Source: Chitinophagaceae bacterium (lineage in GTDB: Bacteria; Bacteroidota; Bacteroidia; Chitinophagales; Chitinophagaceae). Taken from it: a DNA stretch of 64,000 nt. Shown here in pieces: positions 5,793 to 55,464 of this stretch. The notes under the pieces are model-generated. The model ran no database searches. It saw only the letters and a list, made by a program, of their open reading frames with translations, and was not told where the DNA came from. The stretch lies in the NCBI GenBank assembly GCA_044226045.1, contig JBGAHR010000002.1, positions 97,059 through 161,058 on the forward strand, read 5' to 3'. How positions within the stretch are numbered: the first letter of the stretch is position 1; each line of letters starts with the position of its first letter. Position numbers and translations under genes: made by a program.

Positions 5793-7136
5793 ATGGAAAA
5801 GAACCAACAACCTTCCCGTCGTGATTTTGTAAAACAAAGCTCCATCCTTGCAGGCGGATTGATCGCCGCGCCATTGATGAGCCAGGCCGCGAATTATTTT
5901 TCCGGCTCCGACTCTGTCATCAAAGTAGCCCTGATCGGATGCGGTGGCCGTGGCACCGGCGCCGCCATGCAGGCCATGCTCAGCAAACAAAATGTAAAGC
6001 TGGTGGCTATGGCCGATGCATTCCGCGATCGGCTGGATAGTTGCTATAAAACGCTCACGGCAGAGGATATCTCCGACTGGAGTGGCGTAAAAGGGAACAT
6101 CAAAGACAAGATCGACGTTCCGGAAGAAAGGAAGTTTGTAGGATTCGATGCCTACACAAAGGCTATTCCGCTGGCCGATGTAGTTATTCTCACTACCCCT
6201 CCGGGCTTCCGTCCGATCCATTTTGAAGAAGCCGTTCGCCAGGGCAAACACATCTTCATGGAAAAACCGGTAGCTACCGACCCCGCCGGTATTCAGCGAG
6301 TACTGGCGGCCGCCGAAATCGCCAAACAGAAAAAACTGAATGTGGTGGTTGGACTGCAACGCCATTATCAAAACAGCTACCGCGAATTATTCAAACGCAA
6401 AGACCTCATCGGCGATATCACTTCCGCACAGGCCTGGTGGAACAATGACGGCGTTTGGGTAAACAAACGCAAATACAATCAAACAGAAATGGAATACCAG
6501 ATGCGTAACTGGTATTATTTCGTATGGCTTTGCGGCGACCACATCACTGAACAACATATCCATAATATAGATGTGATCAATTGGTTCAAGGGCGGTTACC
6601 CGGTAAAAGCCCAGGGAATGGGAGGCAGACAGGTACGAAAAGGGAAAGAATATGGTGAAATCTTTGATCACCATTATGTAGAATTCCAGTATGCAGATGG
6701 TTCTATCCTGAACAGCCAGTGCCGGCATATTCCAGGCACCATGAGCAAGGTTGATGAGTTACTGGTGGGCACCAAGGGAAAAATATTCGCCGGAGCAGCC
6801 AATATCGTTGACCACAAAGGAAAAGTACTGTACCAGTTCGATACAAAAACAGAAAACAATCCCTATCAAACCGAACACGACGAATTATTCGCTGCCATTG
6901 CCAAAGGAGAGTATAAATTCTCCGATGCCGAAAACGGCGCTAAGAGTACCATGACTTCCATCCTGGGAAGAATGGCCACCTACAGCGGGCAGGTAATTGA
7001 ATGGGACAAAGCCATTAACAGCGGCATTGATCTTCATCCGAAAGTATATGACTGGAACGCAGCACCACCTGTTCTGCCTAATGAAGATGGCTTCTATCCC
7101 GTAGCCACTCCGGGAGTGACGAAGTATGGGGTGTGA
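5793..7136 (+). CDS. Tat-exported Gfo/Idh/MocA family oxidoreductase
   Basis: SRRDFVKQS Tat signal; VALIGCGGRGTG Rossmann motif; HIFMEKP motif. Confidence 0.9.
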   Translation: MEKNQQPSRRDFVKQSSILAGGLIAAPLMSQAANYFSGSDSVIKVALIGCGGRGTGAAMQAMLSKQNVKLVAMADAFRDRLDSCYKTLTAEDISDWSGVKGNIKDKIDVPEERKFVGFDAYTKAIPLADVVILTTPPGFRPIHFEEAVRQGKHIFMEKPVATDPAGIQRVLAAAEIAKQKKLNVVVGLQRHYQNSYRELFKRKDLIGDITSAQAWWNNDGVWVNKRKYNQTEMEYQMRNWYYFVWLCGDHITEQHIHNIDVINWFKGGYPVKAQGMGGRQVRKGKEYGEIFDHHYVEFQYADGSILNSQCRHIPGTMSKVDELLVGTKGKIFAGAANIVDHKGKVLYQFDTKTENNPYQTEHDELFAAIAKGEYKFSDAENGAKSTMTSILGRMATYSGQVIEWDKAINSGIDLHPKVYDWNAAPPVLPNEDGFYPVATPGVTKYGV

Positions 7137-7270
7137 GTTTATTGGTTTATCGTTTATCGTTTCAGGTTTCACGTTGTATCCATGCCTAAAAAACGTTTAC
7201 CGGTTTTCAGACTGAAACAATAAGCGTGAAACGATAAACCTGAAACGATAAACGATAAACTATAAACCAA
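7137..7270. repeat. Inverted-repeat element built from TTTATCG/TTTCAGG heptamers between convergent genes
   Basis: Left arm gtttatcgtttatcgtttcaggtttcacg; right arm cgtgaaacgataaacctgaaacgataaacgataaac is its near reverse complement. Confidence 0.85.
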
Positions 7271-7277
7271 GAAACTT

Positions 7278-8117
7278 CTAACTCAAAATATCTTTCCTCT
7301 TAAACACCACCAAGGCGGTGGTAACGAAGATAAAAATGTGCAATAAGAGCACACCTGCCGATTTGAATACGCCGGAATAGATCACTTTTTCGTCGAAGAA
7401 ACGTTTCCATCCCAGCATATGGGAGGTGAAGAGGTAGGGCTTTAAGGCATTGAACAGCGGCAGGTCCATGGTGGTCAGGATGGTAAACACTATCACAATG
7501 CTCATGGTAGCCACGATGGGGCCGATGGAGTTCTCGGCAAAGATGGACAGCAGGAATGACAGCGCCGCAACGGTAGTCATAGCTATGGCAGCGAACCCGA
7601 ATGCACCGAAGTATCGCCACATCAGGTCACCCGACTGCAGAAATACTACCACATCTGTTTTCTGATTGATCATGTCTCCGGGTCCGAAAACCAGGTAAGA
7701 AACGCCCAGTGCCAATATTGCCATCCAGATCAGCAATAATAAAGTATATACTACTGAAGCCGCAAACTTGCTGAGCAACAGAGACGACCTGCTTACCGGT
7801 TTGGCCATGATCAGCCGGAGGGTTCCCATATTTGCTTCTCCCGCAACCATGTCTCCCCCCACCAGGGCTACCAGCAAAGGCACATGTAATAGCAGTGTTT
7901 GCAATACGATAAAACAGACCATATAAGCCGTCACCTTTTTTCCGTCGATAGAGAAGGTCTGTGTAAGTGATTGCAGCATGAAGTTGATATACGATTCGCC
8001 ATCCAGGTAAAAGGCCAGCTGAATGAGTGTAACGATCACCCCGATCGCTATAAAGGCAATATAGGTTCTTGGCCTCTTGAATATTTTAAACAGCTCAATT
8101 TTTAAAATCGTCCACAT
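7278..8117 (-). CDS. ABC transporter permease (ABC-2 type membrane protein)
   Basis: About 6 TM segments; VAGEANMGTLRLIMAKPVSRSSLLLSKF motif; overlaps the ATPase gene end. Confidence 0.85.
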   Translation of the reverse strand: MWTILKIELFKIFKRPRTYIAFIAIGVIVTLIQLAFYLDGESYINFMLQSLTQTFSIDGKKVTAYMVCFIVLQTLLLHVPLLVALVGGDMVAGEANMGTLRLIMAKPVSRSSLLLSKFAASVVYTLLLLIWMAILALGVSYLVFGPGDMINQKTDVVVFLQSGDLMWRYFGAFGFAAIAMTTVAALSFLLSIFAENSIGPIVATMSIVIVFTILTTMDLPLFNALKPYLFTSHMLGWKRFFDEKVIYSGVFKSAGVLLLHIFIFVTTALVVFKRKDILS

Positions 8118-9373: not shown

Positions 9374-10807
9374 ATGAAACGGAATGTTTTACTCGCATCC
9401 GCATGGATGATTGCTTCACTTACGGCATTTTCACAAACAACAGAAGATTTCAATTCCCGTCCGGGCACTTCCGTAGATGAAGTGAAGGGATTTTTGCAGG
9501 ATCATTGCTGGATGTTCTCCAATATGGAAACAAGCAGCAATGGATGGCAGCCGGGTATTGAAGGAGATGGAACCATCGTATCCACATCAGGCAATTTTCC
9601 AGGCCAGGTCTCTAAAATATATACTCCCTTACTGGAGATTCCCGGATCTATTACTGTTTCCTTCAAATATAAATTCAACAGCCAGGTAAACGGCGCACTG
9701 AAACGTTGGTTTAAACTGTACCTGGTGAATGCTGAGAATGAAATTCAAAGCCAGCTGGATGTATTTGAAATTACCGGCGCCAGCAACCAGGAAGTATACA
9801 CCTATTCAAAAAGCTTCGGTGCCGGTTCGGGCCTGTACAAACTGCTGATCACCTACGAAGGAAACCAGGGCTCTACCCGTGTGGGAATCGATGAACTGGA
9901 AATTTCTGCCTCACAACATTACTCACTGGGTTGCAACAGCGCGCCGGTAGCGATGGACGATCATATCACCGGGCTGGCAAACCGTACGGCACATGGAAAT
10001 ATCTGCAGCAACGACTACGATACGGACAATGATCCTTTCAATTGTTACGTAGTCACCAATTCACCCAACGGAACAGTTACCATCAACCCCGATCGCAGCT
10101 TCAGCTTTGTTCCCAATCCCGGCTTCACCGGAAACAGCACCAGCTTTACCTACCAGATTTGTGAAACCGGCCTGGCGCCTCTTTGTTCCAATACGGCTAC
10201 GGTTACCATCAATTTCCCCACCGGTGGATTCCTGCCGGTAAGCATGATCGATTTCCATGGCTTGTATAAAAACGATGGCAATGTTGAAATCAGCTGGACT
10301 ACCACATTCGAACAAAACAGTGACAGATTCATTATCGAAAGAAGCCTGACTGGTAACAACTGGGAAGAAGCAGGAAGTGTAGCCGGAAAGGGTATCTCAA
10401 CAGTAAAAACAACTTACAGCTTTATCGATAAAGTGGGCCGTAATACCGCCATCAAAAAAGATCTCTATTATCGTTTGAAGATGGTCGACAAAGACGGCAA
10501 GGTAAGCGTAAGTCGTATCCTCGTAGTAAGAGTGTACAACACTTCCAACACAAAAATGATCAGCGTATCGCCGAACCCGGCGAAGAACGATATCGCCGCC
10601 ACCGTTCAACTGAATCAATCGTCAGTAGTGGTGTTCCGGGTATTGACCGGAGCAGGCACTGAAGTGATGCGCAAATCATACAAACTTGGTGAAGGCTCTA
10701 ATAATATTCTCCTCGACGGTACCGCCCGATTAACGCCAGGTATGTATATCCTGGAAGTTGTGGTGAACAACCACGAAAGAATGCTGGTAAAACTGATCAA
10801 GGAATAA
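9374..10807 (+). CDS. T9SS type A sorting domain protein with Ig-like (cadherin-like/Big_9) domain
   Basis: Signal peptide; APVAMDD...NDYDTD...NGTVTINPDRSFSFVPNPGFTG Ig repeat; FLPVSMIDF module; C-terminal VSPNPA...LTPGMYILEV...KLIKE CTD. Confidence 0.85.
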   Translation: MKRNVLLASAWMIASLTAFSQTTEDFNSRPGTSVDEVKGFLQDHCWMFSNMETSSNGWQPGIEGDGTIVSTSGNFPGQVSKIYTPLLEIPGSITVSFKYKFNSQVNGALKRWFKLYLVNAENEIQSQLDVFEITGASNQEVYTYSKSFGAGSGLYKLLITYEGNQGSTRVGIDELEISASQHYSLGCNSAPVAMDDHITGLANRTAHGNICSNDYDTDNDPFNCYVVTNSPNGTVTINPDRSFSFVPNPGFTGNSTSFTYQICETGLAPLCSNTATVTINFPTGGFLPVSMIDFHGLYKNDGNVEISWTTTFEQNSDRFIIERSLTGNNWEEAGSVAGKGISTVKTTYSFIDKVGRNTAIKKDLYYRLKMVDKDGKVSVSRILVVRVYNTSNTKMISVSPNPAKNDIAATVQLNQSSVVVFRVLTGAGTEVMRKSYKLGEGSNNILLDGTARLTPGMYILEVVVNNHERMLVKLIKE

Positions 10808-10831
10808 GAATTTGTAAGGTTTAACAGAGGT

Positions 10832-10874
10832 AAAAAAAGTCCCCCGTTCTGCACTGGCAGCGGGGGTTCTTTTT
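10832..10874. terminator. Bidirectional intrinsic terminator
   Basis: A7, CCCCCG..CTGC ACTG GCAG CGGGGG stem, TTCTTTTT; follows the stop at 10807. Confidence 0.8.
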
Positions 10875-11146
10875 GGGAGCGAAAGCGGGAGCGAGAGCGG
10901 GAGCGAGAGCGGGAGCGAGAGCGGGGAAACGGAAAGGGAAACAGAAACGGGAATGGAGCGAGCGATGGCGAAAGCGAGAGCGTGAGCGAGAGCGGGGAAA
11001 CAGAAACAGGAATGGAGCGAGCGATGGCGGTAGCGAAAGCGGGAGCGAGAGCGAAAGCGGGAGTTCATTCTGCGTGTTCAGCACCTTCAGCCATTCGCAT
11101 AATTCGTATAATTCGCGTAATTCGCATAATTCGCATAATTCGCATT
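10875..11146. repeat. Composite repeat cassette: GCGAGA/GCGGGA/GGAAAC hexamers, GCTGAA-type spacer, AATTCGCAT nonamers
   Basis: Directly visible tandem units filling the gap between convergent genes. Confidence 0.9.
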
Positions 11147-11149
11147 CAC

Positions 11150-11440
11150 TCACTTACCTGCCGTCAAATACGTCTGCAGATTCTTCACATACTCTTCGAA
11201 GGCGGTGATACCAAGCGGAGTTATTTTGCAGATAGTTTGGGGGTAATTGTCTTTGAATTGTTTGATAACATCTATATACCCTGCTTCTTTCAACTTATTG
11301 ATCTGAACACTGAGGTTGCCGGCGGTGGAATTGGTTTTTTCGCGAATAAAGGTAAACTCCGCCTCTTTCACTCCAATAAGAAGCGAAACAACAGCCAGCC
11401 TTAACTGCGAGTGTAATATGGGATCTAAGTCTTTAAACAT
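11150..11440 (-). CDS. Winged helix-turn-helix transcriptional regulator (MarR/ArsR-like)
   Basis: LDPILHSQLRLAVVSLL...TAGNLSVQINKLKEAGYI...ITPLGITAFEEY. Confidence 0.85.
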   Translation of the reverse strand: MFKDLDPILHSQLRLAVVSLLIGVKEAEFTFIREKTNSTAGNLSVQINKLKEAGYIDVIKQFKDNYPQTICKITPLGITAFEEYVKNLQTYLTAGK

Positions 11441-12050
11441 TTACCGCCTTCCTGTTTGTTTTCCTGAACTCTATCATAGCAAGATGACCCGGAATAATAT
11501 ATCCGGCCATTACACCGGCAGCATGAATCAACATGACGTACTGGTAATCTTGAACAAACAGTCCGCCCAATCCGCATGCCGATGTAATATAGGACCCGAT
11601 AATGGAAGGTTTGAAACTAAATATCGTACCATAGATTAAAATCCAGAATCCATACAGGCCCAGTAAAAGACAAAAACCGGTAGTAGGCATGACCACTCTC
11701 AGATTCATGGCCACAATGATGATCATAATGGAAATGAAAAAACCGATGTTGAGGCGGTTAAACAAATCGGAAGTATATGTCTTCACTTTGGGCTGCCGGC
11801 GAATGAATAAAAACCGAACTATTTCCACCACCAGCATCAAAAGAGTGATCATCCCGAAAATATTCCAAAAGAAATACTGGCTAAACCAAGTCGTTTTTGT
11901 ATTGACAAATGAAAGGACAGAAGCCATAAACAGCATCCATCCCCAGATGATCCAGCCGATACCATTGTCTTTCTGCTCCCGCTTGGCTTCCCCGATCATT
12001 TGCTGGATGATACGCAGACTTTCTTCCCTGGATAGTTGATGCTCTTCCAT
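11433..12050 (-). CDS. Hypothetical integral membrane protein (about 6 TM), paralog of the upstream gene
   Basis: Hydrophobic segments; N-terminus LSREESLRIIQQMI resembles LSGAESMQIIQNMI of the neighbour. Confidence 0.75.
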   Translation of the reverse strand: MEEHQLSREESLRIIQQMIGEAKREQKDNGIGWIIWGWMLFMASVLSFVNTKTTWFSQYFFWNIFGMITLLMLVVEIVRFLFIRRQPKVKTYTSDLFNRLNIGFFISIMIIIVAMNLRVVMPTTGFCLLLGLYGFWILIYGTIFSFKPSIIGSYITSACGLGGLFVQDYQYVMLIHAAGVMAGYIIPGHLAMIEFRKTNRKAVNV

Positions 12051-12052
12051 AA

Positions 12053-12649
12053 TTAACTGTTTACTTTTTTATGTTTCGCTCTTAACTGGTAACCTGGAAT
12101 AATCCAGGCCACAGCCACCGCCGCAACCAGTTCCAGGCTTTGAAATATGTATGGTGTAAGGCTGGCCACGATCGCCAGTATCCAGCAAAAGATCCCCCCT
12201 ATCACCAGGGAACGAAGCCGAAGGATGATGCCCGAAAGAAAGGTCGGGATTCCGTATGAAATCAGTAAAACCGGATTAAAAAACTTATAATACCCGGGGC
12301 CTAACAGTACACCCAGAATAAAGGAGTTCAGGAATATGACTATGACAAAACAGATCCAGACATATTTCAGTATCTCACCGGTATAAGTTTCAACTCTCTT
12401 TTGCTTCTTTTGCTTGCGTACATATAAAAACTGAATAACCAGCACTGCCCAGGTAAGGAACCAAACCACGTAATGCCAGCTGACTTCAAAGAAATACAAT
12501 AATACAAACTGACTGAGGCCGCAGATAACTACCGCCCATCCCCATAATAAATAACTAAACCCGTTCTCGCTGAACTGGTTTTTGGCTTTGTTGATCATGT
12601 TCTGGATGATCTGCATACTTTCTGCTCCGGAGAGCGGCTCATCCTGCAT
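12053..12649 (-). CDS. Hypothetical integral membrane protein (about 6 TM)
   Basis: Hydrophobic segments; shares LSxxES.., W.WG and .V.TYT..L motifs with 11433-12050. Confidence 0.75.
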   Translation of the reverse strand: MQDEPLSGAESMQIIQNMINKAKNQFSENGFSYLLWGWAVVICGLSQFVLLYFFEVSWHYVVWFLTWAVLVIQFLYVRKQKKQKRVETYTGEILKYVWICFVIVIFLNSFILGVLLGPGYYKFFNPVLLISYGIPTFLSGIILRLRSLVIGGIFCWILAIVASLTPYIFQSLELVAAVAVAWIIPGYQLRAKHKKVNS

Positions 12650-12668
12650 AGTGTTCGATTTAATCGTT

Positions 12669-12676
12669 CAAATATA
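12669..12676 (-). promoter_or_regulatory. Internal -7 promoter box TATATTTG for the membrane-protein/wHTH genes
   Basis: Plus-strand CAAATATA, 20 nt upstream of the 12649 start. Confidence 0.55.
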
Positions 12677-12680
12677 AATT

Positions 12681-12704
12681 AGTCCCGGCCGGATGGCCGG
12701 GACT
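12681..12704. other. Perfect GC-rich hairpin without a U-tract (mRNA stability/processing or weak terminator)
   Basis: AGTCCCGGCC GGAT GGCCGGGACT, a 10-bp perfect stem. Confidence 0.7.
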
Positions 12705-12713
12705 TAATCCACA

Positions 12714-13370
12714 TTATTTCAACTGCGATAGCAACATCTGCACCTGGCCCTTGCCCCATTGCGGATGTATGTTGCTTTCCGGCTTAAAAGTTTCGTACTT
12801 CTTGAGAGACTGCTCGAACAATGCTTTTGCTTCTGTTTTACTTCCGCCAAACTGTTCCGGCGTATAAAACTTGTCCTGGCCTTCGAGGAGGTATACTCTC
12901 GGATTATCAGGATTGATCGCTTTGGCCTTTTCGAGTGCCTGTGCTGCCTTCGGACCTTCTGTCTGGTACCTGTTCATCGGATCGGCCATCAGGCGAAGAG
13001 AAGACACCATTTTACGTACGCAAAGGATTTCGGAATTGTCTTTGCTGATCGCTTCAGCCTTGTCTAAAAGCTGATCGGCCTGATCTGCCTCGGGGTCTGT
13101 CTTATCCGCAAAACCACCCATGCTTCCGCCACTCAGTGTATACCCGGTCATTACATGACAAAGCGCTGCATAATAATAAGGCAGCCATTGTGTTTTTTCG
13201 GCGTCGCCAATCCGCTGAAAGGCATTGGCCAGATCTTTAAAACCATCAATATTCCTGGTTGTATCGAATATGGCCAGATTTTGTTCCATGGCTTTTGTGT
13301 AACGTTCACTTTGAGCGAAGGTGGTTACAGACAAGGCAACCAGTAACAGGGAGAAAAGCAGCTTTTTCAT
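12714..13370 (-). CDS. Secreted alpha-helical TPR-like hypothetical protein
   Basis: Start MKKLLFSLLL at 13370 (signal peptide); QWLPYYYAAL, AINPDNPRVYLLEG and HPQWG motifs. Confidence 0.75.
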   Translation of the reverse strand: MKKLLFSLLLVALSVTTFAQSERYTKAMEQNLAIFDTTRNIDGFKDLANAFQRIGDAEKTQWLPYYYAALCHVMTGYTLSGGSMGGFADKTDPEADQADQLLDKAEAISKDNSEILCVRKMVSSLRLMADPMNRYQTEGPKAAQALEKAKAINPDNPRVYLLEGQDKFYTPEQFGGSKTEAKALFEQSLKKYETFKPESNIHPQWGKGQVQMLLSQLK

Positions 13371-13420
13371 ATTGTTGTTTTTATTTTTCAGATTAAGTGA
13401 ATGATGATTAAGTGACATTA

Positions 13421-13720
13421 TTAGTCCCGCTGGTTTCTTTTCAATTTCTCATACTCTTCTTCCACACTATTTGCGCGGGGCGCTACATAGGCGCCTACAA
13501 AGTGAAATACCAATCCGATTCCCCACCCTATGGTAGGCCAGATGGCCCAGGGTAATCCCCGATTGGTATAGTGCCTTCCCGAGAAGTACCAGATAGCCCA
13601 GAAGAATCCGTTCATTACCAGGTATACCAGGAGGTGTGTTCTGAAACTGACCCTTTTTTGCGCGATCTCCCAAAGAACGGGGTCTTTTCCGGGCGGCGGG
13701 GGTGTGGGCTGATGTGACAT
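13421..13720 (-). CDS. 2TM domain-containing protein
   Basis: AQKRVSFRTHLLVYLVMN...WAIWPTIGWGIGLVFH, two TM helices. Confidence 0.8.
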   Translation of the reverse strand: MSHQPTPPPPGKDPVLWEIAQKRVSFRTHLLVYLVMNGFFWAIWYFSGRHYTNRGLPWAIWPTIGWGIGLVFHFVGAYVAPRANSVEEEYEKLKRNQRD

Positions 13721-13747
13721 ACAGAATCAATTTTTATTTATACTTTA

Positions 13748-15994
13748 TTAAAGGGCGCTGTTCATCACTTCGTCGGAACGATCTACTCCGAAACTCAGGA
13801 AGGCGCCAATGAAAACAAACATCCGGGAAGGCGGAACAATAGCCTGCTTGCGGAGACCATTGTACGAATACTGGTATCCATACACCTGGCGGATATTGAA
13901 GATATTGCTCACCTGCAGCACATACACATCATACACTTTCGGTTTCTTCTTTCCAATGAACGGAAGGTAATTGATCGAGAAACTCACGTTGTGATATTCC
14001 GGTGTGCGGCCCATATCATTGAACTTATAATTGGCTCCGTCAAATCCGATGTTGTAATAAGGGCGACCGCTGGCAAAGTTGTAAGCCGCATTGAGGTTCA
14101 TCTTCCAGGGCGAAACGAATTTCTTTACGATAAGTGAAGCCGTGTGTTTGGCTGCGAAGTTGGGTGTGATGGCTGATGGAAAATTCAGGAAATCACGTTT
14201 GGTATCGAGATAGGAATACGAAATCCAGTAGTCGAGATTTTTGATGTTCTTCTTGTCTCTCCAGAAAAATTCAATCCCTTTGGCATCTCCATACCCATTA
14301 TTATTCAAAGCCACTTCCCTGCCTGCAGAAAAATCTGTCTTCACCAGGTCTTCATATTTTTTATAGAATACTTCCACACGGAAAGTGGTTCTGTTCTGCA
14401 CTTTCAGGTATTGTGCGATATAGTGCGTTGCCTTAGCGAAAGTGAGCGCACTGCTGGTTGGCAGGTATTTTCTCTCCGGCGTTTGATAAAAGATTCCATA
14501 GGCCAGGGAAGCCTGGTTTTCTTTATCAAACTTGTACGCAACCGACGCTCTCGGTGCAAAATTGGTTTTATCCAGGATGGCGGAATGCTCCAGGCGACCT
14601 CCTATTTTAGCAGCGATGTTGTTGGTGATGTAGATATCTGCTTCCCCGAACGCCGCTTTGAGGTTTTCATTCACCACCAGCGGATAGGTATTATTGTTAT
14701 AATCGGTGAAAAGACTTTTTTCATGGCTATAATTATATTCTCCACCGAAACGAATGCCAGACAACCCTCTTAAGCGACGTTCAAGTACTATCCGCGCGTT
14801 GAGGAACTGACCCCGATTGTCTACCCTGAATTGTTTGAACTCCAGGCCGGAAACCAGGTCATCCTCTTTGTCGGCATTTTTCATTCCGCTGTTGATCTTG
14901 TCCCTGTTGAAAGAAAAAGAAAGGCCGGTATAGATTTTCCATTTCCTGCTAAGACTTTCTTTCCAGGAAAAATTATGATAGGTATTCGAGTTGCTCAGAC
15001 CGAATTTGTCGAATAAACCCAGTGAATCAAGACTGTTGGTTGTAAATGCCATCCGGTTCGAATTGAAGTAACCATAATACTTCAACATCCCCGTTTTGGA
15101 GGTTTTGATGCGAAAGTTCGCATCTGCCCCATGTATTTCAGGTGATTTGGAATAGTCCTGTTGTTGTTTGAATACTGCAAATGCAGGAGCCAGGTTGGTG
15201 TAATTATAACTGCCACCCCAGGAGTATCTCTTTTTGGGATCGAGGTATTGGTAACCGCCACTGGCTCCTAGTACGGATATACCCAGGTTGGCAGTTGTTC
15301 TTTCGGGCAAATCAATAGATTCAAGGATGAGTGCTGAAGAAAGTGCTTGTCCGTATAATGCCGAATAACCTCCGGTGCTGAAAACGGTTCCTTTAAATAT
15401 GAAAGGCGAAAAGCGGCTGAAGGCTGCGATATTGGGTGCGCCGGTAAAGAAGAAATTATTAACCAGGGTTCCATCGATAAAGGTTTTTGTTTCCGCAGCG
15501 GTTCCTCCTCTTACAAATAATCCTTCGCTTTCCCCTACTGTCTGAGCGCCTGGAAGTGTTTTCAGGGCTCCTGTGATATCACCATTAGCGCTGGCCGTTG
15601 TAACAATGTCGATGGGATCGAGAATAGCAGCCGCGCGTTTGCGGTCGCTTGCCTCAAAACTGCCCGCTGAAATCACTACCGCCGTCAGTTCGTTGGGCTC
15701 TTCTTTCATTACTATATTAATGGTGATGGTTCCTCCGGCGAGGTTTACTTTCTGTTCCTGCAGTTTATACCCGATGGAAGTGTACAATAATATATGATCT
15801 CCTTTTTCCGTGGTTCGGAAACGATAATTACCGGTAGAGTCTGATGTACCTCCATCATAACTGTCTTTTACAGCGATACTGGCGCCTGAGAGAGGCTTTC
15901 CTTTTTGATCCCTGATCTTTCCCGTAACGACCGTTTGAGCGGAACCCATCAGAAAGGAAAGCAGCAGCAGCAGAATCGGTATAACCTTGAACAT
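13748..15994 (-). CDS. TonB-dependent receptor with N-terminal carboxypeptidase-regulatory-like domain
   Basis: VTGKIRDQKGKPLSGASI N-domain; plug GDITGALKTLPG...LFVRGG; beta-barrel-like C-terminal part. Confidence 0.88.
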   Translation of the reverse strand: MFKVIPILLLLLSFLMGSAQTVVTGKIRDQKGKPLSGASIAVKDSYDGGTSDSTGNYRFRTTEKGDHILLYTSIGYKLQEQKVNLAGGTITINIVMKEEPNELTAVVISAGSFEASDRKRAAAILDPIDIVTTASANGDITGALKTLPGAQTVGESEGLFVRGGTAAETKTFIDGTLVNNFFFTGAPNIAAFSRFSPFIFKGTVFSTGGYSALYGQALSSALILESIDLPERTTANLGISVLGASGGYQYLDPKKRYSWGGSYNYTNLAPAFAVFKQQQDYSKSPEIHGADANFRIKTSKTGMLKYYGYFNSNRMAFTTNSLDSLGLFDKFGLSNSNTYHNFSWKESLSRKWKIYTGLSFSFNRDKINSGMKNADKEDDLVSGLEFKQFRVDNRGQFLNARIVLERRLRGLSGIRFGGEYNYSHEKSLFTDYNNNTYPLVVNENLKAAFGEADIYITNNIAAKIGGRLEHSAILDKTNFAPRASVAYKFDKENQASLAYGIFYQTPERKYLPTSSALTFAKATHYIAQYLKVQNRTTFRVEVFYKKYEDLVKTDFSAGREVALNNNGYGDAKGIEFFWRDKKNIKNLDYWISYSYLDTKRDFLNFPSAITPNFAAKHTASLIVKKFVSPWKMNLNAAYNFASGRPYYNIGFDGANYKFNDMGRTPEYHNVSFSINYLPFIGKKKPKVYDVYVLQVSNIFNIRQVYGYQYSYNGLRKQAIVPPSRMFVFIGAFLSFGVDRSDEVMNSAL

Positions 15995-16010
15995 CTTTGT
16001 AAATTTATCT

Positions 16011-16038
16011 CAAAAATAAAGTAGTTTACAATATAAAC
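16011..16038 (-). promoter_or_regulatory. -7 box TATTTTTG with adjacent palindrome GTTTA-N5-TAAAC (candidate operator)
   Basis: CAAAAATA at 16011-16018; GTTTACAATATAAAC at 16024-16038. Confidence 0.5.
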
Positions 16039-16100
16039 CAAATAAAGTTTAGTGTTTTCGTAGAGAAGATAACTAATTGATTGTGTGTACTCGGTAAGAG

Positions 16101-16177
16101 GTTTGCGGTTGGCGGTTGGCGGTTGGCAGTTTGCGGATGTTGGATTGGTAATTCGTATGATTCGAGTAATTCGCGTT
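16101..16177. repeat. TTGGCGG heptamers followed by AATTCG nonamers
   Basis: ggttggcggttggcggttggcag, then aattcgtat gattcgagt aattcgcgt. Confidence 0.75.
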
Positions 16178-16179
16178 AT

Positions 16180-16243
16180 AAAAAAAGAGCCCCCCTGTGG
16201 AAACAGGAGGGCGTTTGTTGATCGTACCCTTTAAAAAAATATT
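16180..16243 (-). terminator. Intrinsic terminator preceded by a conserved 26-nt motif (copy 1 of 3)
   Basis: Minus strand: ..TTTTTTAAAGGGTACGATCAACAAAC GCCCTCCTGT TTCC ACAGGGGGGC TCTTTTTTT; the stem mismatch is a G-U pair only on the minus strand. Confidence 0.8.
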
Positions 16244-16474
16244 AATGCGAATTATGCGAATTATGCGAATTAGGCGAATTATGCGAATTAGGCGAATTAG
16301 GCGAATTAGGCGAATTAGGCGAAACGCTGAGGGCGCAGAAGACGCCGAATAAACTGTCGGGCTAACGCATTGCTTTCTCTTTCCGTTTCTGTTTCTCTTT
16401 CTGTTTCTGTCTCCCTTTCCGTTTCACTTTCTTTTTCTCTTTCTCAACCTCTTTCTGTTTCTCTTTCTGTTTCT
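16244..16474. repeat. Composite cassette: CGAATTA(T/G)G nonamers, ACGCTGAGG-type units, TTTCTC/TTTCTG hexamers
   Basis: Directly visible; the hexamer end abuts the stop codon at 16475. Confidence 0.9.
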
Positions 16475-17806
16475 CTACTTCGATTTTACAAATTGCTGGG
16501 TAATCGTTTCACCTTCTGCGCTGGCTCTTACAATATAGGTGCCAGACAGCAGGGAGCTGATATCCATTACTTCGGTCTGACTGGCATTGGTTCTGGCTAC
16601 TCTTTTTACGGTTTGTCCGCTTACGTTGAAAATATCGTATTGAACCTTTTTGTCTTGCCAGGAGGATGGTATGGTCACCCGCACTTCATTAACCGCCGGG
16701 TTGGGATAAACCTGTATACTAAGTGACTTTGCTCCTTCTGTGAATTTCACCAGCCTGGTCTCTGAATAACGATACTTCTGATCCATGTCGATCATACGCA
16801 GGCGGTAGTACAGTATTCCTTTGGCAGCAGGCAGTGCATTATCCTGGTAAGAATATCTGCTTTCCAGCTCGGTGGTACCGTTGGCAAACACCATTGCGAT
16901 ATCCTTGTATTCGCTGCCATCGGTGCTTCTTTCGATAACATAGGCGCTCAGGTTTTCTTCCCTGGACGAAACCCAGCTAAGCATTGGCTTCTTATTATCC
17001 AGTTTAACGGAGAACGACTTCAGTGTTACCGGAAGGCCAAGTTCTACAGGCTTCTGGTAGGTAAATGCTTTAAACCAGAAAGAATACATCCGGTCGGCAG
17101 CGCCGCTGGATCCTGTACTGTGTCCGCCGGTGCGGATACGCAAGGTATTGACTGTTTGATATGTTGTTGTAGCCATTACGCGGGTGGCCGAGGTGTCGAT
17201 ATTTGTATAGTTGGCAATCGGACCGTTAAACCGGGTTCCCACAACAGTGTTGACGCTGTTGATCATTTCCCAGATGCTGGCATACTGAAGCTGGGTATTG
17301 TTTTCGAGTGTGTAGGATTTCTGTCCATAGAAGCTTACCCACTCATTGATCTTGTCGGCATTGCCATCGATGTCGAGCGCGGTGATATTGAAAGCGCTTA
17401 CATTGGCCGGTGAATTATTGCTGTTTACAAAACTGATAGTAAACTCCATCCACCAGTCGCTGGTACCCGATGGGGTGGTACCATTATTATAGGTAACCTG
17501 TGGCTGAAATGCTTTGTCGAATCCGGTTGTTGCCAGGTCGATGTCTACCAACTTCACCAATGCGTTTGACCGGCCGGTTATCTTAACCAATGCATTCACT
17601 CCAGCTGTCACATTCGTGAATTGGTAGATTGCATTGTCTTGTCCGGCTTGTCCGGACTGTAAGGAGGGATTCTTAAATATGAGTTCCTGCTGAGCTTTGG
17701 CCTTTGGCAAGAGAGCTCCTAAAAAAACAAGGGTCACCAGACAGGCTTTACGAAGTGTTGCAAAGCCATTCTTTCTGTTGATACCAGGGTAAAATTGCTG
17801 TTTCAT
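16475..17806 (-). CDS. T9SS type A sorting domain protein with uncharacterised N-terminal beta domain
   Basis: Likely start MKQQFYPG at 17806; LGLPVTLKSF module; CTD IQVYPNPAV...LLSGTYIVRA...QFVKSK. Confidence 0.85.
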   Translation of the reverse strand: MKQQFYPGINRKNGFATLRKACLVTLVFLGALLPKAKAQQELIFKNPSLQSGQAGQDNAIYQFTNVTAGVNALVKITGRSNALVKLVDIDLATTGFDKAFQPQVTYNNGTTPSGTSDWWMEFTISFVNSNNSPANVSAFNITALDIDGNADKINEWVSFYGQKSYTLENNTQLQYASIWEMINSVNTVVGTRFNGPIANYTNIDTSATRVMATTTYQTVNTLRIRTGGHSTGSSGAADRMYSFWFKAFTYQKPVELGLPVTLKSFSVKLDNKKPMLSWVSSREENLSAYVIERSTDGSEYKDIAMVFANGTTELESRYSYQDNALPAAKGILYYRLRMIDMDQKYRYSETRLVKFTEGAKSLSIQVYPNPAVNEVRVTIPSSWQDKKVQYDIFNVSGQTVKRVARTNASQTEVMDISSLLSGTYIVRASAEGETITQQFVKSK

Positions 17807-17896
17807 GATTAGTACGTTTAACTTTTTCAATTGGTACAATAGATGAAAGTTTACCGCAGGTAATTGGAGGCAATAACAAGAGGAATGGATTTATTT

Positions 17897-18190
17897 ATAC
17901 GCGAATTATACGAATACACGAATTACTCGAATTAGGCGAATCGCTGAGGGCGCTGAAACACTGAATCACCGCTTACGCTGTCGCTACCGCTCTTTCACTT
18001 TCTCTTTCTGTTTCTTTTTTCGTTTCCCTTTCTGTTTCTCTTTCTGTTTCTCTTTCCCTTCTGTTTCTCTTTCCGCTCTCGCTCCCACTCACGCTCCGTT
18101 TAACGCTCCCGCTCCCACTCCCGCTCCGTTTAACGCTCTCGCTCTCACTCCCGCTCCGTTTTCCGCTCCCGCTCTCGCTCCGTTCAACCC
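17897..18190. repeat. Composite cassette (nonamers, GCTGA units, TTTCTC/CGCTCC hexamers)
   Basis: Same module order as 16244-16474. Confidence 0.88.
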
Positions 18191-18203
18191 TCCCAGGGTT
18201 TTC

Positions 18204-18265
18204 AAAAATGGCCATCCCGTAGAAACGGGACGGCGTTTGTTGATCGTACCCTTTAAAAAATATTT
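18204..18265 (-). terminator. Intrinsic terminator plus conserved 26-nt motif (copy 2)
   Basis: Stem GCCATCCCGT AGAA ACGGGACGGC at 18211-18234, then GTTTGTTGATCGTACCCTTTAAAAAA. Confidence 0.78.
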
Positions 18266-18400
18266 ACACGAATTATACGAATTATACGAATTAGGCGAAT
18301 CGCTGAAAACGCTGAGGACGCTGAAAACACTGAATGAATCACCGCTCTCGCTGTCGCTTACGCTCAGTCTACCGCATCCGCTTCTTCTGTTTCTGCGCTT
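18266..18400. repeat. Short composite cassette
   Basis: cgaattata nonamers, aacgctgaggacgctgaaaacactgaa, then CGCTCT/CGCTGT hexamers. Confidence 0.8.
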
Positions 18401-18606
18401 GTTTTGCGGCGAACAGTCGTTCGACTATAGACTTAAGCCCATAAATAAAAAACTAAGATTGTTACCTTTCATGAGGAAGAAATGGACAGGTGGTATTTGT
18501 GAGGATTGGAAGGAAGGAATACCATCAGGTTCAATTATGAATAGCCTGCAATTTCATAAGGCATTTTCAATATGGCAGCTTGTTCACGCTGCCTGACCAA
18601 ACCTGT

Positions 18607-18668
18607 AAAAAGAGTCATCCCGTAGAAACGGGACGACGTTTGTTGATCGTACCCTTTAAAAAATATTT
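18607..18668 (-). terminator. Intrinsic terminator plus conserved 26-nt motif (copy 3)
   Basis: Stem GTCATCCCGT AGAA ACGGGACGAC at 18614-18637, with a compensatory change relative to copy 2. Confidence 0.8.
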
Positions 18669-18885
18669 ATGCGAATTAGGCGAATTATACGAATTGGGCG
18701 AAACGCTGAGGACGCTGAATACCCAGAGGACGCCGAATGAATCACCACTCCCGCTCCGTTTAACGCTCCCGCTCCGTTTGCCGCTCCCGCTCACGCTCTC
18801 GCTTCCACTCTCTCTTTCCCTTTCTCTTTCTGTTTCTCTTTCTCTTTCTCTTTCCCTTTCTGTTTCCCTTTCCGTTTCTCTTCGA
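18669..18885. repeat. Composite cassette abutting the stop of 18886-20244
   Basis: Nonamers, ACGCTGAGG units, CGCTCC/TTTCTC hexamers. Confidence 0.88.
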
Positions 18886-20244
18886 TTATTTCTTCACGAT
18901 CCTTTGTGTTGCAGATTCGGTTCCGTTCGACACTTTCACTACATACATACCAGCTACCAGGCCATTCACATTGAGGGTTTCTGTTTGACCAGATCTGTTC
19001 ACCGCTGCATGCTTAACCAATTGACCGTTGATATTGAAAAGATCGATTGATACGTTCTGATTCTGCCAGGTTGCAGGTACTGTTACCCTAACTTCATTCA
19101 CTACCGGATTGGGATACACTGATACTTTTACCTCTTCCTGCTTGTCGCCGATGCGAACCAGTCTGACTTCAGAGTATTGGAATTTTCCATCTAAATCTAC
19201 CATTTTCAGTCTGTAGTAGAGTACCCCTTTTGTATCTGTATTCAGCGCGTCGGAGTAACCATAATTTTGTTTTACGTCAGAGTTGCCGTTTGCAAATACC
19301 ATTGCTACATCCTGGTAGCTTACACCGTTGCTGCTGCGTTCGATTACAAAGTGGCTCAGTTGCTTCTCTTTTCCGGTTACCCAGTTTACAGACACTTTCT
19401 TGTTGTTAACAGTTGTATTGAAATCGAGCAGCACCAGGGGCAAGGTAAAATTGGCCGGTGTCTGATAAGTAAAGTTCTTAAAGTAGAAAGAATACATGCG
19501 GTCGGAAGCGCCATTGGCAGCTGATGCCACTCCACCTGTGCGAACACGGAAGCTGTTACGGTTCTGAAAAGTAGCAGTAGTCATTACCTTGGTTCCGCCG
19601 GTGTCGATGTTTGCGTAGTTGTCAACAGGACCATCGAAGCGTTTGCCGTCGAGAGTCAGCAATCCCGACAATGTTTCGAAAAGGTTGGAAACAGTCAGCA
19701 ATGAGTTAAGTTCGAGTGTATAAGACTTCAACTCGTACAGGGAAACGAACTCATGCAGTTTATCGCCATTTCCGTCGATATCGATGGCTGAAAGTACAAA
19801 CTGGTTTACAGTAGTGGCATTGGTCGTATTACGGTTAACGAAGCTGACCTCGAATTCCATCCACCACTCGGCAGCGCCGCCTGTATTTCCATTATTGTAA
19901 GAAACCTGTGGCTGCCAGGCTTTGTCCCATCCGGTATTCGTCAGATCGATACTCACCAGGCTAACGAGGCTGCTTGAACGCTGTTTGATCGTTACCAGTG
20001 CATCCACATCATTCGATACCTGCGCAAAACGATATACGGCGCCGTCCTGACCAGCTACACCGGATACCAGGGTTGCATTTTTCCAAACCAGTTCAGGAAT
20101 GTTGTTGTTATTATTGGTAGCAGACGCTGTGTAGAAGGCAAAAAGTGATACCAGCAAGGTGATCAGAATCCTGCGAAGAAGAGCAGGCTGGTATACGGGT
20201 ATAGCAATAGCTTGAGGGCACAGGTACGTTTTCATTTCTTTCAT
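18886..20244 (-). CDS. T9SS type A sorting domain protein, tandem paralog of 16475-17806
   Basis: ELVWKNATLVSGVAGQDGAVYRF vs ELIFKNPSLQSGQAGQDNAIYQF; shared WWMEF, DIDGN and DRMYSF motifs; CTD VYPNPVVN...LVAGMYVVKV...RIVKK. Confidence 0.87.
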   Translation of the reverse strand: MKEMKTYLCPQAIAIPVYQPALLRRILITLLVSLFAFYTASATNNNNNIPELVWKNATLVSGVAGQDGAVYRFAQVSNDVDALVTIKQRSSSLVSLVSIDLTNTGWDKAWQPQVSYNNGNTGGAAEWWMEFEVSFVNRNTTNATTVNQFVLSAIDIDGNGDKLHEFVSLYELKSYTLELNSLLTVSNLFETLSGLLTLDGKRFDGPVDNYANIDTGGTKVMTTATFQNRNSFRVRTGGVASAANGASDRMYSFYFKNFTYQTPANFTLPLVLLDFNTTVNNKKVSVNWVTGKEKQLSHFVIERSSNGVSYQDVAMVFANGNSDVKQNYGYSDALNTDTKGVLYYRLKMVDLDGKFQYSEVRLVRIGDKQEEVKVSVYPNPVVNEVRVTVPATWQNQNVSIDLFNINGQLVKHAAVNRSGQTETLNVNGLVAGMYVVKVSNGTESATQRIVKK

Positions 20245-20582: not shown

Positions 20583-22160
20583 TTATTTATACTGGGGGAT
20601 GATGGTATTGGCCAGTTCCACCATTTTCTTCAGACCGTCTTCGGGCAGGTTACCCTTCTTGAATTCAGCCATTACATCCGGAAGTTTGTTTTCCATTTCC
20701 ATGAGGAAGTGTTCTTCAAACTCTTTCACCTTTTTCACAGCCACATTTTTCAACAGACCCTGCGTACCGAGGTAGATGATAGCTACCTGCTTTTCTACCG
20801 TAAACGGAGTGTACTGAGGTTGTTTCAGGATTTCCACGTTTCTGGCTCCTTTATCGATTACGTTCTTGGTAGCTGCGTCGAGGTCACCGCCGAATTTAGA
20901 GAAGGCTTCCAGCTCACGATAAAGAGCCTGGTCGAGTTTCAGTGTACCCGCCACCTTTTTCATCGACTTGATCTGCGCGTTACCACCCACACGGCTAACC
21001 GAGATACCCACGTTGATCGCCGGGCGGATACCTGAGTTAAACAGGTTACTTTCCAGGAAGATCTGACCATCGGTAATCGAGATCACGTTGGTGGGGATAT
21101 AGGCAGATACGTCACCGGCCTGTGTTTCGATAATAGGGAGGGCTGTCAAAGAACCGCCACCCTTTACTTTACTTTTCAAAGATTCAGGGAGGTCGTTCAT
21201 GTTCTTGGCAACGTTATCATCGCTGATTACTTTGGCAGCGCGTTCGAGCAAACGACTGTGCAGGTAGAATACGTCACCAGGATAGGCTTCACGACCGGGT
21301 GGGCGACGAAGCAGGAGAGACACCTCACGATAGGCAACAGCCTGTTTGGAAAGGTCATCATAGATGATCAAAGCAGGACGTCCGGTATCGCGGAAATATT
21401 CACCGATCGCCGCGCCGGAGAACGGAGCATAGAACTGAAGCGGAGCAGGATCAGAGGCAGATGCAGCTACAATGGTAGTATAGGGCATCGCGCCGTTATC
21501 CTCGAGGGTCTTCATAACTCCCGCGATAGTGGAAGCTTTCTGACCGATCGCTACATATATACAATATACCGGTTTACCGGCCTGGTAAAATTCTTTCTGG
21601 TTGATGATCGTGTCGATCGCGATGGCTGTTTTACCAGTCTGGCGGTCGCCGATGATCAATTCACGCTGACCACGGCCAACGGGGATCATCGCGTCGATCG
21701 CTTTGATACCTGTTTGCAGGGGTTCTTTAACCGGCTCACGGAAGATTACACCGGGAGCTTTACGTTCCAGGGGCATTTCATACTTTTCGCCGGCGAGCGG
21801 TCCTTTACCATCGATGGGTTCACCCAGCGCGTTTACTACGCGGCCGAGCATTCCTTCGCCTACATTGATAGAGGCGATCTTACCCGTACGACGAACTTTT
21901 GATCCTTCTTTGATATCGGTGCTTTCACCCATCAATACCACACCCACGTTGTCTTCTTCCAGGTTGAGGGCGATTGCACGAACACCATTCTCGAATTCAA
22001 CGAGCTCACCACTGCTCACGTTGTTCAGTCCGTACACGCGGGCAATACCATCACCCACCTGCAATACGGTACCTACTTCTTCGAGATCGGCACCCGCATT
22101 AAAGTTGCTGAGCTGCTGGCGCAATATCGCCGATATCTCATCTGGTTTAATTTCTACCAT
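20583..22160 (-). CDS. atpA: F0F1 ATP synthase subunit alpha
   Basis: GDRQTGKT Walker [41 protein letters not shown]. Confidence 0.98.
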
Positions 22161-26685: not shown

Positions 26686-26753
26686 GAAAGTCAAAATTCA
26701 AAAGTCAAAATTCAAAAGTCAAAATTCAAAAGTCAAAAGTCAAAATTCAAAAT
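26686..26753. repeat. GTCAAAA/TTCAAAA heptamer array
   Basis: About 9 tandem units just upstream of the ABC gene start. Confidence 0.88.
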
Positions 26754-26796
26754 TGTGACAACCTTACTCTGAAACCATTGGGTTGAGTTAGCAGCT

Positions 26797-27063
26797 ACTG
26801 TTTCTGTTTCCGTTTCCGTTTCTCTTTCTCTTTCCGTTTCCCTTTCTCTTTCCGTTTCTCTTTCTCTTTCCGTTTCTCTTTCTCTTTCCGTTTCTCTTTC
26901 TCTTTCCGTTTCTCTTTCTCTTTCCGTTTCCCTTTCTCTTTCCGTTTCCCTTTCTCTTTCCCTTTCTGTTTCCCTTTCCGTTTCCCTTTCTCTTTCCCTT
27001 TCCGTTTCTCTTTCTCTTTCCGCTCTCGCTCCCACTCCCGCTCCCATTCCCGCTCCCGCTCCC
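26797..27063. repeat. Long hexamer array (TTTCTC/TTTCCG/TTTCCC grading into CTCCCG)
   Basis: About 44 units, purine-rich on the minus (mRNA) strand, starting at the stop codon of the upstream gene. Confidence 0.92.
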
Positions 27064-32675: not shown

Positions 32676-33108
32676 AAAGTGAAAATTGAAAAGTCAAAAG
32701 TCAAAAGTCAAAAGTCAAAAGTCAAAATTCAAAAGTGAACAGCTAACTAGTTCATGCAGTTCAGGAACGCAGAGGACGCCAAGTACCGCTAAGGGCGCAA
32801 AAAGAAATTCAAAAGCCAAAAATAAAACGTTGATCAATATGCGATTCCGTAAAAAAATAGAATTAAATTTTCAGGTTGCTTAGAAAATATTACTTTTTAC
32901 TTTTTACTTTTTACTTTTTACTTTTTACTTTTTACTTTTTACTTTTTACTTTTTACTTTTTACTTTTTACTTTTTACTTACTTTTTACTTTTTTTACTTT
33001 TTACTTTTACTTTACTTTTTACTTTTTACTTTTACTTTTTACTTTTTATTTTTACTTTTTTTTTTACTTTTTACTTTTTAATTTTGACTTTTGACTTTTG
33101 AATTTTCA
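32676..33108. repeat. MITE-like element with heptamer terminal inverted repeats and an internal TTTTTAC array
   Basis: Left gtgaaaattgaaaagtcaaaagtcaaaa; right ttttgacttttgacttttgaattttcac; internal (TTTTTAC)n at about 32890-33077. Confidence 0.88.
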
Positions 33109-33111
33109 CTC

Positions 33112-49481: not shown

Positions 49482-49588
49482 GAGTAACTGTTTATTTGCG
49501 GCAAAAGTATCCCCGCACTGTTACCGTCCTGTTACTCCAATGTAATGGAATTGTGACCTCAATGTTACCGGAATGTTACCTGCCTGGT

Positions 49589-50888: not shown

Positions 50889-51012
50889 GTTAAATTAACA
50901 TTTCGCGCAAAAGGTAAAAGGAGCCTCGGACGCCCCGTATTAAATTGTTACCAAATGTTTCCTCTTGCCGGGTTGGTCTATTTCGACTAATCTTTGCGCA
51001 AAACTTAGTTCC

Positions 51013-51644: not shown

Positions 51645-51691
51645 TTAAGGAACAGGAAATAGATTTTCCTTTACTTCCATTTGTATTTATT

Positions 51692-52716: not shown

Positions 52717-53002
52717 ACTACAGTTACGATTCCTTTAAATTACGGATTACGAATTACGGATTACGGATTACGAATTACGGATTACGAATTACATATGGAT
52801 TATTAATTACGAATTATTTGATGTAAAAACAACCTGTCGTCCGCATTTCGTCATCTGTAATTACACTTGCTCATTGACCAATTAACCAATTGGCGTATTG
52901 CCAAATTGCATTCCATCCGTAATTCGTCATCCGTCATTCGTAATCATCATTGGCTCATTGACCAATTGGCGTATTGGCTCATTGCCTACCCATCCGTGTA
53001 CC

Positions 53003-53916: not shown

Positions 53917-53936
53917 GAGTAACTGTTTATTTGCGG

Positions 53937-54014: not shown

Positions 54015-54023
54015 CTGCCTGGT

Positions 54024-55340: not shown

Positions 55341-55358
55341 GTTAAATTAACATTGGCG

Positions 55359-55448: not shown

Positions 55449-55464
55449 CGCAAAACTTAGTTCC

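Follow-up and report, generated by a model that had tools for sequence, protein, structure and literature searches.

Five repeat cassettes of a Chitinophagaceae genome share a fixed module order with arrays found genome-wide and in a sister species

How do five composite arrays of short tandem repeats, each lying between genes, come to string the same unrelated units together in the same order and relative orientation? We address this question for a 64,000-nucleotide stretch of DNA (the window; C78:97059-161058) from the genome of a Chitinophagaceae bacterium (G000), a soil or freshwater organism represented by a 4.7-Mb draft of 112 contigs that is 99.99% complete. The composite arrays, which we call cassettes, run from nonamer to hexamer repeats, and they are a capped form of a repeat system that extends across the whole genome. 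Our preferred reading, to which we give a probability of about 50%, is that the cassettes belong to a satellite-like family of short tandem repeats that is specific to this lineage and built up into higher-order units, copied between loci by a probably recombinational route and resized by slippage. Repeats were called with Tandem Repeats Finder (TRF) and by direct reading of the sequence; genes were taken from our own crude model of open reading frames (ORFs), in which starts are over-extended. The labels of the repeat families (A to I) were assigned by hand, with orientation as in the cassettes, and an unsupervised test agrees with them. Comparisons drew on the 12 other congeners of G000 (13 genomes in the genus), on 401 genomes from 151 genera of the family, and on a 400-kb sample of the single informative sister genome, G003.

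The initial annotation had placed five cassettes with one module order in the window, and TRF, direct reading and alignment all find them there (Table 1). All five read in the same direction, from A nonamers through a CGAA[A/T] joint into B nonamers, then through a linker into C and/or D hexamers. A multiple alignment matches the five along A, across the A-to-B joint, and along B and the linker GAATGAA; linker sequences include TGAATCAC, TAAACTG and similar ones. The hexamer tails differ among cassettes and may carry periodicities of their own: the tail of cassette 1 has a 59-nt higher-order period, and the C hexamers of cassette 3 are built on a 30-nt higher-order unit.

These five cassettes are a local sample of about 50 A-headed composites plus several hundred related chains. 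Short tandem repeats make up 113 kb of G000 at a TRF score of at least 30, and 61 kb in 1,009 arrays at a score of at least 50, which corresponds to 1.3-2.4% of the genome and 13% of intergenic DNA (88 kb within 657 kb of intergenic DNA vs 25 kb within 4.05 Mb of crude ORFs). Periods of 6, 7, 8 and 9 dominate, and nine main families account for the labels used here: the nonamers A (CGAATTAYR) and B (ACGCWGARR), the hexamers C (CGCTCY) and D (TTTCYN), the heptamers E (GGTTTGC), F (GTTTATC or GTTTCAC), G (ATCCGTM) and I (AAAGTCA), and the octamer H (ATTGRCYA).

Across the genome, the families follow the grammar A>B>(F>E)>D>C, to which alternating higher-order blocks of G and H are added. Around the 72 A arrays of at least three units, B lies downstream on the same strand in 27 cases, downstream on the opposite strand in none, upstream on the same strand in one and upstream on the opposite strand in three (binomial p ~5e-13 for placement after A, by our own arithmetic). 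The corresponding counts are 38, 2, 2 and 0 for C, and 32, 1, 1 and 1 for D, and A is always the first module of its chain. Regular-expression counts agree, with F followed by E in 53 cases (8 in reverse), E by D in 51 (none in reverse), D by C in 161 (15 in reverse) and A by B with the exact joint in 18 (2 in reverse). Adjacent arrays share orientation 705 times and differ 130 times, and the matrix of bigram orders is strongly one-sided. With unsupervised clustering of the units, 198 of 266 adjacent pairs fall in the commonest of four configurations, vs a random expectation of 101 +/- 4. Higher-order repeats are common, including chains of the form (C D E F)x2 and (G H)xn with TRF periods of 30, 59 and 76 nt. 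Module order and strand are thus not random genome-wide, and the cassettes behave as the suggested dispersed, non-autonomous element in that the order and strand rule holds both throughout G000 and in a second species.

The strongest evidence that the copies are related lies in the sequence between modules. CGAA or CGAA[A/T] closes the A array at 25 loci and leads directly into CGCWGA; the last B unit is nearly always CGCTGAA/G; and over the 8-14 nt after B come variants of T[G/T]AAyt..c, ahead of the first CGCTC unit. The F-to-E joint is stereotyped too (GTTTCA[C/G]-GTT-GGTTTGC). Since stereotyped non-repeat joints cannot recur by slippage, the composites descend from a common ancestral sequence: the copies are homologous and come from a common composite rather than from separate slippage at each site. 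Unit numbers, in contrast, change quickly in place. The segments at 49067-52997 and 53501-57486 are 93.6% identical over 4 kb, carry 7.7 vs 13.3 heptamer units, and one of them has an extra G-H block. These segments form a tandem segmental duplication of ~4 kb in a region with a phosphate-related TonB receptor, and the two copies have different numbers of units in their G and H arrays. As a separate observation on unit sequence, CG, TG, CA or TA usually fill the two free positions in the A unit, and in the CGCG context the second CG stays intact. Decay of methylated CpG would be expected to give such a pattern, as would free transitions beside a constrained core.

To place the repeats among relatives, we measured amplification of A as runs of at least three A units. 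Such runs gave 151 matches in G000, 37 in G003 and none in the other eleven congeners; elsewhere in the family, four genomes have 1-3 matches and the rest have none. Among the 401 family genomes, A arrays are therefore amplified only in G000 and G003. None of the nine families was found at 80 atpA loci of other Chitinophagaceae. Short tandem repeats as such are more widespread, with loads (score of at least 50) of 1.30% in G000, 0.79% in G003, 0.78% in G006, 0.80% in G007, 0.33% in G002, 0.10% in G011 and 0.43% at the 80 loci of other genera. The repeat units of G006 and G007 differ from those of G000; adjacent families in G007 have a fixed relative orientation (13/13), and G006 has solitary arrays.

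Comparison of orthologous intergenic regions, a check proposed in the initial annotation, separates filled from empty sites. Synteny around the cassettes is retained in five congeners. In G002, G011, G006 and G007, the sites are empty: a conserved motif and a terminator come within ~6-20 nt after the stop codons of the genes that encode proteins with a type IX secretion system (T9SS) sorting tail. An array separates the stop codon from the motif and terminator in G000 and G003. The T9SS-tail protein of G003 is 89% identical to that of G000, and at the same places G003 has A arrays and the A-then-B order, followed by CAAACCT-type heptamers instead of C and D hexamers. In the 400-kb sample, 53 chains of G000 with both flanks mapped in G003 represent 46 distinct orthologous gaps, and 31 of these 46 hold arrays in G003. 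Polarity is the same in 22 of the 31 shared gaps and opposite in 9, and the families often differ. The orders A>B and A>E>D>C hold in G003, some A positions hold the variant AATCTGCGY, and the spectra of unit variants are specific to each species. The presence of arrays at orthologous sites indicates that these were colonised before the two species split (~80% gene nucleotide identity), and the differences in family and unit variant suggest that the content of the colonised sites has kept turning over since. At one G003 locus (L087, G003:C4, ~6300-7800), a unit consisting of the terminator motif, A, B and CAAACCT heptamers is repeated 4-5 times in tandem between two T9SS-tail genes, with an assembly gap (a run of N) inside the tandem repeat.

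The arrays are tightly placed relative to genes: they occupy dispensable DNA, as a rule beginning 0-4 nt past a stop codon and ahead of the terminator. Chain ends are most frequent in the 5-nt bin at 0-4 nt from stop codons, which holds 65 heads and 46 tails, and convergent gene pairs are enriched (36% of chains vs 15% of all gene junctions). Genome-wide, there is a moderate strand bias, such that the tail points toward a gene 3' end in 69% of chains; toward gene starts, tails are rarer than heads (181 vs 269; chi-square ~28, by our own arithmetic). Where a chain end directly adjoins a stop codon, it is as often a head (126) as a tail (113). We considered several simple causes of polarity. Replication direction does not account for it, as per-contig orientation is uncorrelated with GC skew (Spearman -0.14, p = 0.55), and gene strand bias is also unrelated. 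Terminator hairpins do not favour one chain end (11 at heads vs 10 at tails with a strict hairpin score). The initial annotation took the purine-rich strand to be the mRNA strand where a neighbouring gene ends at the hexamer side; this fails as a general rule, with the gene-sense strand purine-rich in just 46-53% of arrays. Moreover, the strand that is C-rich in modules C and D is G-rich in E, so polarity is not explained by base composition. RNA folds of the cassettes show no excess structure over shuffled sequence (z = +0.78, +0.84 and +1.72 for three folds). None of the five cassettes has an inverted partner arm, 2-3 of the 72 A arrays genome-wide are paired, and same-family inverted pairs number about 23 among 835 adjacent array pairs in G000. 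The arrays give many genes 3' untranslated regions of 200-300 nt and coincide with some contig ends of the draft assembly.

A route by which the cassettes may have arisen can be outlined as follows. The A-B head, the F-E-D-C block and the G-H block would be inherited units, and the composite would have spread among intergenic sites in the common ancestor of G000 and G003, and since. Spread would occur by recombination-type copying between arrays, whether gene conversion, template switching or unequal exchange, a route that would leave no transposon-type ends; slippage would then resize each module. Selection would remove copies that disturb genes, promoters or terminators, and would mildly disfavour those whose head-to-tail direction runs into a downstream gene. 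Copies would survive where they are harmless: in a compact genome, in the short stretch from a stop codon to its terminator, or from a terminator to the promoter that follows. Several points weigh against this account. No copying event has been caught, and there are no close strains. Recombination among about 1,000 arrays would be expected to rearrange the genome as well, but synteny with G003 is intact at every place examined. Seeding of a new site needs something besides homology. The same sites keep the same polarity over ~20% divergence, so the arrays could be useful and not merely tolerated. Finally, an end recognised by an enzyme would also look like the well-defined heads seen here.

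One alternative, which we regard as unlikely, is that the A (and B) nonamers are recognition arrays of a GxxExxY nuclease or a four-helix-bundle system, and that another A-headed locus serves as the template when a cut A array is repaired, with modules copied one way from the head. Such copying would yield a constant head, fixed joints and variable tails, and the invariable first place of A in its chain fits it. By profile matches, the four-helix-bundle genes (PF05635/TIGR02436) of G000 number four and its GxxExxY genes (TIGR04256) one, and none of these lies in the window. The initial annotation was right on this for the window itself, but the GxxExxY gene (C78:161198-161539; TIGR04256, 114 bits) lies 140 bp beyond its right edge. 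An A array near the end of the window (Table 1) and an inverted partner outside it bracket this gene, the only GxxExxY gene of G000, together with its convergent neighbour, a beta-lactamase-fold gene, beyond which the in-window array lies. All four four-helix-bundle genes lie between inverted arms of repeat families (F/F', I/I', C'/C and H'G'/G). In metagenomes, the A nonamer is common, on contigs of 21-66% G+C; of 112 A arrays there, 41 are matched by an inverted array no more than 1.5 kb away, the loop in most cases measuring 4-140 nt, one of these pairs (L104) encloses a GxxExxY gene, and at another locus (L152) an A array stands just upstream of a putative four-helix-bundle gene, by our reading by eye. 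In G007, GxxExxY genes are framed by B-like units such as ACGCAAAGA. Against this stand the gene numbers, which run the wrong way: GxxExxY genes number 1 in G000, 2 in G003 and 2-12 in the other congeners, and four-helix-bundle genes number 4, 3 and 3-11, so that the two genomes with amplified A are among the fewest of the 13 congeners for both, as they are for Y1-transposase genes. Copy number of either gene as the driver is rejected, as the relation, if any, is inverse. The metagenome loci also carry B-like CRCRRAG units before A, the reverse of the order in G000, and the chain types show no clear one-sided truncation series. To our knowledge, no nuclease activity is known on A-type repeats. 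With low probability, the fixed grammar could be the footprint of a hitherto undescribed polar DNA-copying process in bacteria, in which the A head is recognised or cut and repair synthesis copies the modules one way into the gap between stop codon and terminator. If this were true, one and the same ordered series of modules would be written again and again over the 3' ends of hundreds of genes, and the long-unexplained 6-9 bp repeats of bacteria would gain an enzyme and a mechanism.

Function is another possible source of constant order and polarity, one compatible with the other readings and in itself quite doubtful as the explanation. The arrays could be selected cis-elements: unstructured spacers in 3' untranslated regions or between genes, whose pyrimidine-rich strand might load Rho or provide insulation, or which might offer a platform to an RNA- or DNA-binding protein. 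Consistent with this, polarity agrees in 22 of 31 occupied gaps though the families differ; at the T9SS locus, three species carry the unrelated units CGCTCC, CAAACCT and CTCACGA in one place, all of them C-rich and G-poor on the same strand; the cassettes are less structured than shuffled sequence; tails point toward gene starts less often than heads; and each unit has a conserved core with one or two free positions. However, the arrays have no common composition that would back Rho loading in general (E is rich in G on the strand on which C and D are rich in C, and purine-rich gene-sense strands are at 46-53%), close congeners need just 6-20 nt at the same sites, and the ends at stop codons lack a head or tail preference. 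Templated addition had been put forward in the initial annotation. A reverse transcriptase or telomerase-like enzyme that used an RNA template to add modules to the 3' ends of genes would account for fixed order and polarity with variable unit numbers, and for heads that often stand right after the T-run of a terminator. We consider it highly improbable: neither G000 nor G003 has a match to RVT_1 (PF00078), the A>B joint is absent from viral contigs, and the arrays are old enough to be orthologous between species. Short tandem repeats do expand by slippage, and the assembly is a draft of 112 contigs, but independent slippage at each locus, or an assembly artefact, is extremely improbable. Identical non-repeat joints and linkers recur at 18-25 loci, in line with the earlier view that slippage does not explain the shared order, and the arrays lie inside contigs between unique genes. 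The separately assembled G003 has arrays at the same sites in the same A>B>E>D>C order, which argues against an artefact.

Several known kinds of element were also compared with the cassettes and rejected as identities. All-against-all BLAST of the chains found no clean ends for the A-B-C-D composite; the top pairs were overlapping flanks of neighbouring chains, followed by the miniature inverted-repeat transposable element (MITE)-like family described below. MITEs, repetitive extragenic palindromic (REP) sequences and bacterial interspersed mosaic elements (BIME) resemble the cassettes in being dispersed, non-coding and intergenic, in numbering from dozens to hundreds and in their frequent location at the 3' ends of genes. 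Unlike these, the cassettes have no terminal inverted repeats and no palindromic unit, the comparison of filled and empty sites shows no target-site duplication, and the tail ends are variable and unrelated. The proposed link to a REP-associated tyrosine transposase (RAYT) did not hold up either, as G000 has a single weak match to Y1_Tnp (30 bits). [quoted passage not shown] Rfam 15 gave no match at E <= 1 across 10500-19200. Carriage by phage is rejected on the missing A>B joint in viral contigs, and a one-sided truncation series like that of long interspersed nuclear elements is rejected as prefix and suffix chain types both occur. The inverted cassettes ~5.1 kb apart (11146 and 16244) do not delimit a composite transposon; a similar inverted pair on C37 encloses unrelated genes.

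The ORF-bearing 23S rRNA intervening sequence is the published form of a hairpin cassette, and PF05635/TIGR02436 is the "23S rRNA intervening sequence protein". The system in G000 resembles such repeat-armed hairpin cassettes in that the F, I, C and G/H families form arms of four-helix-bundle genes, in that such arms consist of A-type and B-like units in metagenomes and G007, and in its anchoring at stop codons. The five cassettes of the window differ from them: they lack inverted arms, a stable stem-loop, excess fold and a cargo gene, and their modules are unidirectional, so this identity is rejected. Eukaryotic satellite DNA, with its higher-order repeats and "library" model, offers another likeness. 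As in satellites, the arrays of G000 show higher-order blocks, species-specific variants across loci and fast change in copy number; in contrast to the megabase blocks of satellites, they are hundreds of arrays of 20-700 bp between genes, bounded by stop codons or terminators.

Intergenic tandem repeats of 6-9 bp have been recorded for decades in cyanobacteria, Bacteroidota, xanthomonads and sulfur bacteria. Among them are the short tandemly repeated repetitive (STRR) sequences of heterocystous cyanobacteria, along with other long intergenic repeats with units of 5-11 bp. The G000 repeats resemble STRR-type repeats in comprising hundreds of intergenic arrays from several unrelated 6-9 bp families per genome, overwhelmingly non-coding and patchy across lineages. 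They differ in unit sequence, in the A-B-C-D composite of 9- and 6-bp units, and in that the families are strung in fixed order and orientation with stereotyped joints and a head module. TAACTGA heptamers occur in Beggiatoaceae, Cyanobacteria and Bacteroidetes, and assemblages of several heptamer repeats are found in intergenic regions of Bacteroidetes whose close relatives have shorter, repeat-free regions (MacGregor 2015, PMC4679880); absence from close relatives at the same gene neighbourhoods is likewise seen here. GGGNATC repeats of Xanthomonas and Nostoc often lie within 50 bp of stop codons (Rehm et al. 2015, PMC4692102), and the G000 arrays share this closeness. [quoted passage not shown] We found no description in the literature of repeat families that are joined in a set order and relative orientation through stereotyped joints. 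Three handles follow from G000, namely the strict order and polarity, the fixed joints that mark homology, and a sister with filled sites beside close congeners with empty ones. These open copying, polarity and any role in termination to direct test.

The surroundings of the five cassettes are listed in Table 1.

Table 1. Repeat cassettes, neighbouring genes and related features of the window, in window positions
Feature	Position	Strand	Details
Ig/cadherin-like protein	9374-10807	+	weak, sub-cutoff match to T9SS sorting tail
Cassette 1 tail, C/D hexamers	10875-11063	-	C = GGGAGC/GAGAGC, D = GGAAAC, read on +
Cassette 1 B nonamers and linker	11064-11092 (B 11066-11092)	-	reverse complement GGCTGAAGGTGCTGAACACGCAGAATGAACTCC
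Cassette 1 head	11093-11146	-	six A nonamers
HTH_34 gene	11150-11440	-	last in operon
TonB-dependent receptor	13748-15994	-	
Partial composite	16100-16173	-	E heptamers 16100-16136, three inverted A units 16148-16173
Terminator and conserved 26-nt motif	16182-16243	-	hairpin 16189-16212; ancestral 3' end of T9SS-tail gene 16475-17839
Cassette 2 head	16244-16327	+	8-9 A nonamers, last unit truncated to CGAA
Cassette 2 B and linker	16328-16372 (B 16325-16352)	+	three B nonamers ACGCTGAGG GCGCAGAAG ACGCCGAA
Cassette 2 tail	16373-16474	+	17 D hexamers
T9SS-tail gene	16475-17839	-	paralogue of 18886-20244
Cassette 3 A, B, linker	17897-17989	+	degenerate A 17897-17941, B 17942-17968, linker TCACCGCT...
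Cassette 3 tail	17990-18190	+	D 17990-18073, then C 18074-18190
Second terminator copy and 26-nt motif	18200-18263	-	hairpin 18211-18234; orphan, no upstream gene
Cassette 4	18264-18400	+	A 18264-18300, B 18301-18336, linker TGAATCAC, only degenerate C/D to about 18400
Third terminator copy and 26-nt motif	18607-18666	-	hairpin 18614-18637; 3' end of gene 18886-20244
Cassette 5 A, B, linker	18667-18746	+	A 18667-18702, B 18703-18739, linker TGAATCAC
Cassette 5 tail	18747-18885	+	C 18747-18810, then D 18811-18885
T9SS-tail gene	18886-20244	-	paralogue of 16475-17839
atpA	20583-22160	-	
Further chain, same grammar	26687-27063	+	I heptamers, D (18-nt higher-order unit, 11.9 copies), C hexamers
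A array	63292-63315	+	pairs with inverted A array C78:161626-161651

Read along the minus strand, the two T9SS-tail genes run from stop codon to cassette (tail first), then to the 26-nt motif and the terminator. The tail of cassette 2 abuts exactly the stop codon at 16475-16477, and that of cassette 5 lies ~5 nt from the stop codon at 18886-18888. The initial annotation placed all five cassettes at gene 3' ends; the hexamer side abuts a stop codon in cassettes 2 and 5, but not in cassettes 1, 3 and 4. In cassette 1, the HTH_34 gene ends (stop codon 11150-11152, minus strand) 3 nt from the head, hence at the nonamer side, and its tail ends at a bidirectional terminator (10835-10875). Cassette 3 is placed between the orphan terminator and the start of the gene at 16475-17839, and cassette 4 is an orphan copy. 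The partial composite lies upstream of the TonB-dependent receptor gene. The terminator and 26-nt motif at 16182-16243 are conserved in all five congeners examined. The motif itself is GTTTGTTGATCGTACCCTTTAAAA; terminator plus motif reach up to 100% identity over 55 nt in congeners and occur as tandem copies with spacers of 180-290 nt in G003, G006 and G007.

Other small elements are associated with the arrays elsewhere in the genome. A MITE-like element of ~450 bp (C33:41880-42325), a separate family, is present at about 45 other places, none of them in the window. It has 17-nt terminal inverted repeats (CACTGTTGTCCGGGGAA) and two internal runs of C-type hexamers, sits within H or A arrays, where its insertion may have duplicated ATTGACCAAT, and has several copies at contig ends. 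A small hairpin element (…CCTCAGACGAGTCTTATCCGCCGAAGGCGGAGGACG…) is nested in F/E arrays at C18:54508-54828, C63:1750-2208 and other places; it is reminiscent of small dispersed repeats that have been reported from within heptamer arrays of cyanobacteria. Within the window, 32890-33110 holds 32.7 TTACTTT heptamers, a family outside the nine labelled here. Arrays of the kind described would be highly variable markers for strain typing.

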